Shown in pieces: positions 9,297 to 62,317 of a stretch of DNA of 64,000 nucleotides (position 1 is the stretch's first letter; each line of letters begins with the position of its first letter). Source of the stretch: Octopus vulgaris (Eukaryota); NCBI GenBank assembly GCA_951406725.2, contig OX597816.1:73470001-73534000 (forward strand), in the 5' to 3' direction. The position numbers and the translations under genes are program-made. The notes under the pieces are model-generated. The model did not search any database and was not told the origin of the DNA. It saw nothing but the letters and a program-made list of their open reading frames with translations.

Positions 9297-9471
9297 GTTA
9301 ATCCAAAAACGACGAAAAAACACAAGAAAAAACAACGCGAGGACGTGCTACATGCAAAATATTAAAAAACGCTCAGGGAAGGAAAGCAAGGCTGTTTAAC
9401 GTTTCGTGCAAAGCTTTTCTTCATAAACAGGAGACAGAGGAAAGTCCAGGAGAAAAGGAAGACGGAAAAAA
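9297..9471 (-). mobile_element. Penelope-type pseudo-LTR module with degenerate hammerhead
   Basis: Homologous to 62121-62317. Minus strand 9392-9430 reads CTGTTT-ATGAAGA-A-AAGCTTTGCAC-GAAA-CG-TT-AAACAG. Confidence 0.7.
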
Positions 9472-12343
9472 ATTTCTAGGTGCAATCCCATGGTCATTCA
9501 TGACCGAAGGGGGTCTTTACTCGTTTTAAACTCGGATTAAACAAAAAGCAGAAATATATTCGTCACTAAAGTGAATAAGTGCACTAATCAGTACTAGTAT
9601 TGCTAGAAATAAGAGTCAAAACAACTCAATAGCCACAAAAAGTACTATCTTAATGAGCTGACAAGGGAGACAAACCTGCTACGGTCGCAGGTAGAGCTAC
9701 ATCACTGATTATTTCGCATTCTGATGCTTAACGTATCTTAATCCTTATCAGCAGCTCTCACCGCGCCTAGGGTTAAACTCGTCTCGGCTTCTCAACTTAT
9801 GAGATTTCCATTGAAATTATATGCGAATTATCAGAATTAGTTCAAAGTAGCAACCTTTACCTTATATGTATAGCAGATGCATCGTTGAAAGACTTATAAA
9901 CTGTGAGATTCGTCTCGAGAAAGTATCTCGTTTAGAGGGCTCGTCTCAAAAACGCAGAAATATTGCAACAGCAGACGAAGGTTGTCTAGTACTGATAATG
10001 GTATTGCAAAAGATATTTCTACCTCTTCTCCAGCACCAAGAATCCACTGACTTTTGAATGCTAAAACAAAATCGGTCAGGACCAATATTATAAAAGTTAT
10101 TCTCTCGTAGACGATTGTTAGTTCCAGCCACTCATAATACCAAATATTATTCAATAACTCTATTCAATATCTTTTTTAATGTAATTCCCTTGCAGAATCA
10201 ATTGTGAAAGAGGTATTCTATCCGATAGGCTTCAATACAGTCTCCATCAACAGAATTTTACTCAAACGTCTTAGATTAACTTCAGGTAAAGCTTAAATAT
10301 TTTTTTTAATGATGTCGAGCAGTGGGAAGGAATGCCGGACGTTATTGCAGGGACGCGATCTTTCTAGCCATTGGATCACTCTTGCGTACATACCCTCGCA
10401 CGCATGCACACACAGACACACACACACACAAATACACACACACACATACACACACACAAACACACATAAGACCTGTATCAACAATTAATGTTTTTCTGTT
10501 ATTTATCACTTAACAATGCTAACACTGACATGCGTGCGTGTCTATGTGTGTGCATGTGTATGTGTGTGTGTGAGTGTGCGTGTGTGCTCATAGAATACAC
10601 AATCACACATACACGAATACGTATGCATTCACATAGAATTGAATAACACACATACACATATATGCCTCCGTATATACATACATACATATATATATATATA
10701 TATATATATATATATATATATATATATATATATATATATATATATATATATAAATGTACATATATTTATACATACATATATATGTATACATCGTATATGT
10801 TATTTAATATATATATATGTGAATGTATATACAGATATATACGTACATTACTTACATGCTCGTACTTAATACATAAATAAATATATACATATAAATGCAT
10901 ATTTATATATACACACATATCTTATGTTCGTGTGTGTGTGTGAAAAAATATATATATGTATATATATATATATTTATGTCTATGTATATATATGCATGCA
11001 TGTATGTATGTATGTATGGATGAATAGATGGATGTATATATGTGCGTATATGTTTGTCTTTACGCATATACACTCATGTACATAGACATCCACTCACACA
11101 CATCCACACACACACACATCCACACACACACACACACACACACACACATTCACCCAATACCACAAACACTGCCGAACAAGTCATTAACTTCGTTCTAATA
11201 GTCAGTTTGATAATTATATTCATAATACCCTTGCCTTAATTAATTAATCGTTCTCATTTTGCGGCCAATAACAATAAGTAATCACAGATATTACTATATT
11301 ACTTGGGTGCAACACTCGGGTGGCCGTGGCGAGTACAATGGAATTAGTATAATAGACTTAGATGTTTCCATTCATTCTGATATTTCAAATAGGACTTTCG
11401 TCATTCCGACTGGTAAAACTCGTTCAGCAGGCATTCACTGGTCAGGTATGAGGAGAAGATCGTGACAATCTGTGTATATACATATATATACATATATATA
11501 TATATACATATATATATATATATATATATATATATATATAAACAAAATACAAGCATTCATAAAAATAACACAAGCATTACATACATACATGCATGTATAC
11601 ATACACACATACATACACACATACATATATACATATATATATGTATATATATATATATATGAGTGTGTGTGTGGGTATGTATATATATATATATATATAT
11701 ATAGGGGGGTGTATATGTATACATATATGCATATATATATAGTTACATATATATATATATATATATATATATATATATATATACATATATCTATCTGTAT
11801 ATATATGAATGTATATGTATATATATGTGCTATGTATGCATATATATACGTATGTACATATATATAGAAGTATATATCTATTTATATCTACACACAAATA
11901 TTTATATATACACGGACATGCGCATACACACACATACACACACACAAACACACACATATATACACACACACACACACACACACATATATATATATATATA
12001 TATATATATATATACACACACACACCTCCAAACATACATATATGTGCATGTATATATGTCATCTGTGCTTTTTATTAATGCTTGTATTTCGTGCATGCAT
12101 GTATATTTATGTGTGTACGTATACATGTTTGTACATACGTACATGTATATAAATGTATGTGTATGCATATGTGTGTGTGTGCGCGAGCGTGTGGCTTGCG
12201 TGGTGTTTGTGCACGTGTATGTGCACGTTTGTGTGTGTCTAAAAATGCTCATATATAGAGACAGACAGACAGATAGACAGACAGATTATTTATTTATGTA
12301 TGTGTATATATGTATATATATGTATATATTCTTTTTCTTTTTT

Positions 12344-12715
12344 TTTTACTTGTTTCAGTCATTTGACTGCGGCCATGCTGGAGCACCTCCTTTAGTCGAG
12401 CAAATCGACCCCGGGACTTATTCTTTGTAAGCCCAGTACTTATTCTATCGGTCTCTTTTTGCCAAACCGCTAAGTTACGGGGACGTAAACACACCAGCGT
12501 CGGTTGTCAAGCAATGCTAGGAGGACAAACACAGACACACAAACACACACACATACATATATATATATATATATATATACGACAGGCTTCTTTCAGTTTC
12601 CGTCTACCAAGTCCACTCACAAGGCATTGGTCGGCCTGGGGCTATAGCAGAAGGCACTTGCCCAAGATGCCATGCAGTGGGACTGAACCCGGAACCATGT
12701 GGTTGGTTAGCAAGT
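12344..12715 (-). mobile_element. SINE family B, nearly full length
   Basis: Close reverse-complement match to 46861-47262, including the internal (TA)n(TG)n. Confidence 0.9.
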
Positions 12716-13269
12716 TACATATATATCTGTGTGTTTGTTTGTTTGTGTGTGCGTGTGTGTGTTTAACTTGTAGAAAAAAAAAAACATTTAATATTAAACT
12801 GAAAGATCACTCAACAGATTTTAGAATCGTACATGTTTATTTTTAGAAGGAAATTGTTGCCAATCCCTTAACAGTTATGGGTTGATCACCCTTATCAGAC
12901 AGTCTTTCGGCGGTGAGCTGCCAAATCTTTGTTGTCTCTGCATATACATATACATCTATCTATATCTATCTCTATCTATCTATCTATCTATCTATCTATC
13001 TATCTATCTATCTATCTATCTATCTATCTATCTATCTATCTATCTATACATACATACATACATATATATATATATATATATATATATGTGTGTGTGTGTG
13101 TGTGTGTGTGTGTGTGTGTCTATGTATGTATATATTTAACTTCCCCTCTCTCTCTCTCTTGCTCTCTCTACCTCACCCTTCTCTCTAGCCTGTGTCTTCC
13201 TCTATCTGTCTGTCTCTCTCTCTCTCTCTCTCTCTCTCTCTCTCTCTCTCTCTCTCTCTCCTACCCCTC

Positions 13270-13838
13270 CTCACTTTCGTCACTGCTAAACCTTTCCGCC
13301 ATTTGCATTCAGGCCATAAGGTCATGTTTCCTCGCGCTCGCCAGTTACCCTCTCGTCCATGCCAGAACAAAGGCCTCCGTTCGTCTTTTTCGTTTGTTCT
13401 CTTGTTTATTTTTGATTTCTCGTATTGTAATTTAATTCTCGTTATGTATTTTCATGTACATGTATCTTTAATTTTGTATTTTTTTCTTGTATGTATTTTT
13501 TGTGCAGTTCCTTGTTACGTCTCTTTTTGTGTTACATTTTTTCTTGCTCGTTTACCCCTCTACGAGTTTATTTTATTTTAATTCTCTCGTAGGAAGGCTT
13601 AGATTGATCTTACGTGTTCTGTCTCTGCCTTCGAAACACGTGTCTGCTAGCGACAGCTGATGAAGGGGATTTTTCCTTGTGTAGCATGTCCTGTACTTCG
13701 TTTTTCTGCTGCACATAATTGTTTTTCCCGTTTTCGTTTAGGTTTCGTCTTGTTCCACGTCTCTGTCCTTCTGTTGTAACAAAATGTCTTCTCCGTTTTC
13801 GTTCTGTTGATTTTTTCGTCTTCTTGTGATGTCCTGTA
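13270..13838 (+). mobile_element. PLE-like 3' UTR / terminal-repeat fragment
   Basis: Preceded by (CT)n, T-rich, ends in (TA)n, like 43342-44060. Contains GAAA-CACGTG-TC and CTGATGAAGG hammerhead-like words at 13626-13670. Confidence 0.5.
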
Positions 13839-14062
13839 CGTATATATATATTTATATATGTATGTATATATACATGTAGATGTCGGTACGTACATATATG
13901 TTTGTATGTATGCATATATTTTATTTATTACACTATATATATATATATATATATATATATATATATATATATATATGTGCACGTGTGTGTGTATGTGTGT
14001 GCGTGCGTGTGTGTGTATATATAAGTATAGTTATATATCGGCTGGTACACACGCAGTATGTA

Positions 14063-61205: not shown

Positions 61206-61509
61206 TTCTGGTTTTGGGGTATTAGTTCCTCTTTCTAACAAGTGGAATTCTGGTACCCTACTTTATTTATTTGTATATTTTAGCTATATAGTTCAAACTT
61301 CCTGGCCACTTTATTATTTTTATTATTATTATTATTATTATTATTATTATTATTATTATTATTATTATTATTATTATTATTATTATTATTATTAATAATA
61401 ATAATAATAATAATAGTAATAATAATAATAATGGTAATATATATATATATATAAATATATATATATATATATAGATATATAGATATAGATATAGATATAT
61501 ATATATATA

Positions 61510-61697
61510 TTTGGAATTTACAAAAATACAAAGCAAAAGATGAAAACAGGTGTGTAAACAACAAACAGCTGTATTAGTTGAAGGCTCGGGAAGTGGGAAT
61601 GTCTTTACGTTTCGAGCCTACGCTCTTCGACAGAAAGGAACACAGAAATAAACAGGGAGAGAAAATAATAAAGGTTCAGTGGCTAGCGATCAATCAT
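61510..61697 (-). mobile_element. Solo Penelope pseudo-LTR with hammerhead variant
   Basis: Homologous to 43850-44060. Minus strand 61602-61637 reads CTTT-CTGTCGA-A-GAGC-GTAG-GCTC-GAAA-CG-TA-AAGA. Confidence 0.8.
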
Positions 61698-61812
61698 ATA
61701 TATACAAATACCTACCTACCTACATACATACATACATACATACATACATACATACATACATACATACATACATACATACATACATACATACATACATACA
61801 TACATACATACA

Positions 61813-62040
61813 CTTCATTATTAAAGCTGCAAAAACATCACAAAAATATCGCAAAGACTGTCACTCAGAATTTCATGTTCACGTTCGTCGGACGAACGGA
61901 AACGTGGAACTCTAAGTAACGGATTCTGTGATATTTTGCCGTGGTCATGCAGCTTTAATAATAAAGCATATTACTCTACCTCCAGTGTTCACGTACTATT
62001 TTTTTCCCAACTTGTTTCACATTTATGTGCTTATCTGGTA
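61813..62040 (+). mobile_element. Fold-back PLE-like module
   Basis: Imperfect ~77-bp arms at 61813-61889 and 61891-61966, centred on CGTTCGTC-G-GACGAACG. The tail ends in TA. Confidence 0.7.
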
Positions 62041-62120
62041 TATATAATATATACTATATATATATATATATATATATATATATATATATATATATATATA
62101 TATATATATACATACATATA

Positions 62121-62317
62121 GTTAATCCAAACAAGAAAACACAAAAAAGAACACAACAACGCGAGGACGTGGAACAAATATAGTATTATTGGACGCTCAG
62201 GAAAGAAGGAGGGTTTAACGTTTCGAGCGGAGTTCTTCGTCGGAAACATAGAAGAAGGAAAGATCCAGAGAAGGGAAGACAGAGGAAAAAAATCGTCAAC
62301 GGTACACACGAGGTCAC
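62121..62317 (-). mobile_element. Solo Penelope-type pseudo-LTR with hammerhead variant
   Basis: Minus strand 62213-62247 reads GTTT-CCGACGA-A-GAAC-TCC-GCTC-GAAA-CG-TT-AAAC. TA runs on both sides; homolog at 9297-9471. Confidence 0.78.

Follow-up and report, generated by a model that had tools for sequence, protein, structure and literature searches.

We analyzed a 64,000-nucleotide stretch of Octopus vulgaris DNA (the window; positions 73,470,001 to 73,534,000 of contig OX597816.1, forward strand, assembly GCA_951406725.2), in which a sequence-only reading had picked out five hammerhead ribozyme motifs. Our preferred interpretation, to which we give a probability of about 75%, is that these are minimal type I hammerhead folds in the pseudo-long terminal repeats (pLTRs) of three families of Penelope-like elements (PLEs), here denoted A, B, and C, that they are truncated copies of uncut RNA, and that family B carries a fixed and conserved substitution of A by U at core position 6 (A6U), in a hammerhead that would cut slowly at most and only as a dimer. 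The A6U substitution in family B is a fixed, conserved variant and not the product of decay. A conserved U6 core in an intact, young element is what is new here, the other features being mostly of a known kind.

A hammerhead descriptor modeled on the earlier motif definition recovers exactly these five motifs, which had been placed and oriented correctly, among the eight GAAACGTH sites of the window, compared to a mean of 0.07 and a maximum of 1 match in 200 block-shuffled controls. The motif at 61602 reads 61603–61636 with a 3-bp stem I, its weak pairing being due to the loss of one base in that copy. Each of the five carries an additional A behind A9, with ACGU standing where stem III would be, as had been proposed. 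The motifs do not, however, form the single family that had been described.

The U6 core of family B and its autonomous element

Families A and B share a scaffold. Allowing any letter at the seven core positions, we find 37,533 exact matches to it in the 2.8-Gb genome, compared to none in a reversed control. This is a lower bound on the number of copies, and it bears out the very high abundance proposed from the window; in a 600-kb sample, 10 matches were seen where 8.0 were expected from the genome-wide count. Core letters were tallied by hand for the first 100 matches listed, all of which come from the first 4.7 Mb of contig C1. A 4-nt loop marks 67 of these as B-type, and U occupies position 6 in 61 of the 67 (CUGUUGA 23, CUGUAGA 19, CUGUCGA 11, CUGUGGA 6, and other U6 cores 2, next to 4 copies with A6 and 2 with C6). 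All four letters occur at N7 among the U6 copies; the CUGUYGA core that had been suggested to be a true subfamily variant is indeed one, and is more exactly CUGUNGA, fixed in the autonomous lineage.

In a tree of 104 modules, built with the core excluded and with oversampled young families thinned, family B forms a ladder of subfamilies. Comparing the majority lines of seven B groups (46 copies) along this ladder, we find that, within the hammerhead, position 6 changed once, N7 five times, and H17 three times (A or U), and that G8, G12, and the C3-G8 pair are unchanged. Only 1 of 30 constrained hammerhead columns varies, compared to 70 of 135 flanking columns (p = 2e-7), and when the columns fixed by the search pattern are left out, the figure for the hammerhead is 1 of 17 (p = 2e-4). 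N7 and H17 are the positions that the hammerhead leaves free. That only these two vary beyond position 6 indicates that the fold stayed under constraint after A6U. The U6 fold is likely still useful to the element, with catalysis being a prediction from the sequence. We infer the direction of the change, from A to U, because A6 is what families A and C carry, as does the published consensus. In contigs from two other organisms, the B motif is present with only U listed at position 6, which says little, as variation at N7 is likewise not listed there. The motif also occurs in contigs from runs that are only presumed to be RNA, which we do not count as evidence of expression.

The family B motif is the pLTR hammerhead of an autonomous Neptune-type PLE, whose open reading frame (ORF) encodes a reverse transcriptase (RT) and a GIY-YIG endonuclease (EN). 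Among ten loci chosen for the longest open frames, six have the U6 motif CUGUUGA flanking the ORF at either end, within direct repeats of 92–99.6% identity, and in three long-ORF loci the frame is open from its first Met (1078 aa in L103). The protein comprises an RT (Pfam RVT_1, E = 1.4e-7), then a CX4CXXC linker, and, at its C terminus, a GIY-YIG domain with CCHH residues (E = 0.0065, below the gathering threshold); a search by sequence found no relative with a solved structure. The linker and the CCHH residues match the Neptune/Nematis description in PMC8557442, and it is from this match, rather than from a placement of the clade on an RT tree, that we take the Neptune-type label.

The element ends ∼100 nt past the predicted cut, at a short TA run that is also present in its own internal copy, and (TA)4+ follows 49 of 57 family B 3′ ends. 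Together with the position of the motif in the pLTRs of coding elements, these ends identify the short B modules as truncated insertions of the autonomous element. Older B subfamilies likewise lie behind related GIY-YIG frames of 65–73% identity (L294 and L308). In the window, the motif at 43924 terminates a 1.13-kb copy that starts inside the GIY-YIG domain, so that one motif does lie behind such a domain, as had been noted, and the cut predicted after 43956 is correctly positioned for this family B copy; the 40 best of 1165 candidates for it are 98–100% identical. A near full-length B element, 97% identical to that of L103, was also encountered within a 600-kb random sample (L150:240–4696, +).

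Families A and C and the copying of their RNA

Family A consists of modules of ∼200–225 bp (the 40 best of 2875 candidates being 92–98% identical) that have stem II, a downstream UUCCYGAGCG word, and a (TA)n end in common with family B; (TA)4+ follows 85 of 99 family A 3′ ends. Older A subfamilies have a canonical CUGAAGA, CUGAUGA, or CUGACGA core, and the youngest has CCGACGA (U4C). C4 is found in 22 of the 33 A-type matches among the first 100 listed, and in the module tree U4C arose in more than one A branch. Longer A copies run for >1 kb upstream into CA-rich sequence, and a word from this upstream region has 123 exact matches. A PLE frame upstream of family A was absent from all 18 informative loci, of ∼8 kb each (2 of 20 stretches being uninformative), and no ORF was found beside 60 short A copies. 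Family A is thus likely non-autonomous, with family B or a relative as its putative helper, and its assignment to a pLTR follows from homology to the end of B. Family A as the pLTR of a neighboring PLE in locus L162 was considered and rejected, as that PLE has a U3-A8 motif of its own. Some A copies have G at position 17, which would block cutting (L321, L322, L337, L352, and L359); these possibly form a small subfamily.

The UUCCYGAGCG word is conserved 15–25 nt past the cut in both families (in the window, at 43974–43985 on the + strand and 62196–62205 on the – strand). It is complementary to G12 and to the 3′ strand of stem II, a pairing adopted in the minimum-energy fold of the 61602 motif only, and could possibly form an inhibitory alternative helix.

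The family C motif lies in the pLTR of another PLE; the family core is canonical (CUGAUGA, found in 61 of the 91 motif matches), and stem II has 5 bp. Its layout comprises a tRNA-like head, an internal (AAT)n, a body, the hammerhead, and two alternative 3′ ends ∼30 nt apart, and inverted pairs are frequent. This family is not (TA)n-targeted, with (TA)4+ at only 2 of 49 3′ ends, so that the (TA)n targeting proposed for all the modules stands for families A and B and fails for C. In L271, L278, L286, and L290, the head lies ∼40 nt past the end of a GIY-YIG-like frame, which was assigned by motif and gives no Pfam GIY-YIG match. The head is putatively of Pol III type, its A and B boxes being box-like by eye, and Rfam gives no tRNA match to it. 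We rejected a free tRNA-derived short interspersed element (SINE) as the identity of family C, as the head abuts the end of this ORF in the longer copies. In family C, moreover, an ATG within the pLTR starts a reading frame that continues across the hammerhead and the tail (L036:1530–1640, +).

In place of a single non-autonomous population, we thus find modules of B that are pieces of a coding element, a family C that forms the pLTR of another such element, and A as the only one that appears to be non-coding. The description of ∼200-bp modules bounded by TA or TACA runs is apt for 62213 and 61602, which are flanked by TA runs, but not for 9392, a decayed copy of the CUGAAGA group that adjoins another repeat, to which the TACA run belongs. 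The features of the window are collected in Table 1.

Table 1. Hammerhead motifs and their host copies in the window (window positions; strand relative to the window)
Feature	Position	Strand	Remarks
Family B minimal hammerhead, core CUGUUGA (U6)	43924..43961	+	cut predicted after 43956; the two pLTRs of full-length elements carry an identical motif
Young 5′-truncated Neptune-type PLE copy: GIY-YIG end, 3′ untranslated region, hammerhead pLTR	42927..44059	+	between (TA)n runs
CX4CXXC linker and GIY-YIG endonuclease frame of the 42927 copy	42931..43338	+	Pfam GIY-YIG E 0.0056, below gathering threshold
Family B hammerhead, older subfamily, core CUGUCGA	61602..61637	-	one stem I base lost
∼190-bp 5′-truncated family B module	61511..61698	-	between TA-rich runs
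Family A hammerhead, core CCGACGA (U4C, youngest subfamily)	62213..62247	-	single mismatch in stem II of this copy
∼200-bp family A module in (TA)n	62121..62319	-	without ORF
Decayed family A hammerhead	9392..9430	-	own subfamily has canonical CUGAAGA
Older 5′-truncated family A module	9297..9474	-	
Decayed family C hammerhead	32552..32587	+	61 of the family's 91 motif matches have the core CUGAUGA
Family C pLTR, with tRNA-like A/B-box head at 32226-32294 and internal (AAT)n at 32295-32502, then body, hammerhead, and tail	32226..32645	+	
Inverted family C tail copy at the 5′ end of the insertion	32181..32225	-	

Tail-only queries, used to read the 5′ ends of A and C copies, show upstream sequence reaching beyond the cut in 29 of 30 copies for A and likewise in 29 of 30 for C, while the exceptions start 6–10 nt after the cut; for family B, none of 13 incidental copies has its 5′ end at the cut. 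One C copy in the random sample (L157) folds back 1 nt past the cut. Same-strand pairs less than 600 nt apart number 4 among the 251 A/B motif matches in the collected loci, with overlapping loci counted twice. This retention of upstream sequence and rarity of tandem copies fits an uncut-RNA template (PMC11167929) and not circle-forming retrozymes (PMC7229834), and it is likely that the A, B, and C insertions are single truncated copies made by target-primed reverse transcription of uncut RNA. In such a scheme, the B protein would nick (TA)n and prime ∼100 nt downstream of the hammerhead, early termination of reverse transcription would leave the 200-bp modules, family A would borrow the protein of B or of a relative, and the insertion step itself would need no cutting. 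Two hammerheads could pair through ACGU, either between pLTRs ∼4.5 kb apart or in trans, and such paired hammerheads may occasionally trim read-through transcripts, probably with help from the element protein.

Fold, predicted cleavage, and competing readings

Besides the extra nucleotide after A9, these PLE hammerheads have G10.1-C11.1, GAAA, A15.1-U16.1, H17, and a palindrome in place of stem III. The CUGANGA core is held by family C and the older A subfamilies, but not by two groups that we class as variants: B, with U6 in 61 of its 67 matches, and young A, where 22 of 33 carry C4. As stem III consists of ACGU only, a monomer cannot close it and only a dimer can (PMC4209133). For the U6 hammerhead, we expect dimer-dependent cutting that is slow at most.

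Stem I, which has changes on both of its sides, is paired in 84% of cells over 14 representatives of the families, compared to 56% when shuffled, with 0 of 500 shuffles reaching this value and all slid controls being beaten; the rows are related and the families hand-picked, several being perhaps independent, so that this figure is to be distinguished from an R-scape result. The proposed covariation of stem I holds as pairing kept between representatives, while the five-motif comparison from which it was originally drawn mixed families rather than close homologues. For stem II, MAFFT misaligned family D, a further Neptune-type PLE family with an 850-aa frame (L174–L210, e.g., L204:2665–5214, +) that was not found in the window, and in which a swap between C-G and U-A is seen. 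The family D hammerhead has a U3-A8 core, no extra A, a 2-bp stem II, and an ACCGGU palindrome.

Several observations weigh against our reading. The order of the B ladder was set by us from the tree and the divergences, which are not strictly monotonic (0.081, 0.15, 0.087, 0.103, 0.068, 0.047, and 0.009), and a midpoint-rooted tree needs three changes at position 6. The 4 columns of loop II show 0 changes and so match the core in invariance, which means that protein binding or promoter function, rather than catalysis, may underlie the conservation. In monomer energy folds, the core pairs with the ACGU strand and the stability is like that of shuffles (z from +1.1 to –1.2), the predicted dimers are not the hammerhead dimer, and the energy models do not favor the hammerhead fold. 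H17 is often U here, and U is the slowest cleavable letter at this position. The helper of family A is a candidate only. Finally, a natural A6C substitution strongly lowers activity in Mg2+ (PMC3088659, PMC7151607), which raises the possibility that A6U is inactive.

The strongest competing reading, which we regard as a substantial minority possibility, takes these points further: the B motif would be a catalytically dead hammerhead kept as a structural element, such as an RT/EN binding site or part of an internal promoter, with A6U and U4C tolerated or favored since cutting harms the template. The invariance of loop II, the copying from uncut RNA, the prevalence of U4C in the A-type matches listed and its repeated origin, and a G at position 17, carried by 3 of 90 copies of A and 1 of 68 of B, are all in line with this, as is the normal insertion of hammerhead mutants in vitro (PMC11167929). 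A dead motif does not, however, readily explain why the repeated changes between B subfamilies fall at N7 and H17 (the latter A or U only), which a working hammerhead leaves free, why G8, G12, and C3-G8 never change, or why the sister family D has a compensatory U3-A8 pair and another palindrome. Conversely, the U6 core may have been selected because it cuts only when switched on by paired pLTRs plus the element protein or Mn2+, saving uncut RNA for insertion, an extension of our preferred reading that we put forward as tentative and, on balance, doubtful.

The retrozyme-like population of the sequence-only reading, that is, non-autonomous copies propagating themselves via cleaved, circularized RNA, appears improbable. 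It would suit the missing ORFs of family A (upstream of the 18 long copies and near the 60 short ones) and the preferred 5′ boundary of this family ∼115 nt before the cut, and retrozymes do derive from pLTRs (bioRxiv 10.64898/2026.07.22.740005). It sits poorly with the ties of B and C to coding elements, the rarity of close same-strand pairs, the A copies that reach far upstream, and the lack of 5′ ends at the cut. Post-insertion decay or chance matching as the source of the variant cores has a negligible probability, being true for 9392 (C3 to A, with stem II mismatches) and 32552 (G5 to C, with a 10-nt stem II deletion), both decayed copies of canonical-core families, but refuted for U6 and C4 by the scaffold matches against none in the control and by U6 in both pLTRs of intact elements.

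Relation to known elements and other observations

Minimal hammerheads of the same architecture, with low, dimer-only activity, are known from metazoan PLE pLTRs (Cervera and De la Pena 2014, PMC4209133). The extra A, the palindromic stem III, and the solo and inverted copies are already published PLE features, and the likeness extends to the short stem I, the extra nucleotide between 9 and 10.1, G10.1-C11.1, palindromic 15.2-16.2 without a stem III, U-rich flanks, many solo copies and opposite-strand pairs, and a U3-A8 variant, here in the sister family. The difference lies in the core: the published consensus has A6, which its descriptor requires, whereas B fixes U6 over several subfamilies and the youngest A has C4. 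In the literature covered, which was partial and did not include Lunse et al. 2017 or Ambros and Flores 1998, we found no A6U hammerhead and none of these variant cores. The nearest natural parallel with a pyrimidine at position 6 is the A6C hammerhead of phage Bcep176 (PMC3088659, PMC7151607), a single phage example with C rather than U, slow in Mg2+ and faster in Mn2+, compared to tens of thousands of copies in an animal retrotransposon here.

As in the EN+ Neptune/Nematis PLEs (Craig et al. 2021, PMC8557442), the B element has a single ORF with RT, CX4CXXC linker, and GIY-YIG with CCHH, a (TA)n bias, pLTRs, and partial tandem and inverted insertions; a core variant is not mentioned in the part of that text covered. 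With Poseidon_Ac, an element found in the green anole (Frangieh et al. 2024, PMC11167929), the present families have in common an RT start that is internal and downstream of the hammerhead, an uncut template, and an optional tail, family C having two 3′ ends and a frame opening inside the pLTR. The Poseidon_Ac hammerhead is protein-assisted and dispensable for insertion in vitro; among the differences are its canonical core and its lack of microsatellite targeting. Family A resembles metazoan non-LTR retrozymes (PMC7229834; bioRxiv 10.64898/2026.07.22.740005) in being short, apparently non-coding, and pLTR-related, but those form tandem repeats with efficient canonical hammerheads and circular RNAs, in contrast to the dispersed monomers and minimal motifs seen here. 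Family C recalls the SINE-like SM-alpha hammerhead repeats of schistosomes (reviewed in PMC6765202) in its putative Pol III-type head upstream of the hammerhead, and differs in that this head follows a GIY-YIG-like ORF in longer copies, hence the pLTR assignment.

Why PLEs carry hammerheads matters, given that these are poor cutters and that insertion in vitro proceeds without them. In the present case, an intact and recently copying element has a strongly constrained fold, yet also a change in the core that should slow cutting. This genome still contains A6 copies of the ancestral type, so that a comparison of A6 with U6 would be a direct test of a catalytic versus a structural role, and the subfamily ladder, A6 and then U6 with each letter at N7, amounts to a natural allelic series on the purpose of the PLE hammerhead. 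In other respects, what we describe is a typical case of a known kind. Tens of thousands of such motifs in a single genome would escape descriptors built on CUGANGA. A stricter descriptor of our own, run on 60 evenly spaced stretches of 10 kb, gave 17 matches, of which 15 belong to the families described, and none in 2 shuffles. An Rfam scan of the whole window showed only microsatellite artifacts among the 150 of 510 matches listed, and neither a hammerhead nor a tRNA was matched when the B motif, an intact C copy, and the C head were each scanned by themselves.

Two further features of the window stand apart from these families. Directly 3′ of the 9392 module lies a separate repeat (9140–9290, –) with CUGAUGA, GAAAC, and a GUC triplet but without a plain stem II; its tail is common to 1559 first-look candidates, it occurs with two different heads, and inverted pairs are frequent. 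An open frame at 14136–14456 (–), for which there is no Pfam match, resembles what we take to be the C-terminal part of a mariner-type transposase.

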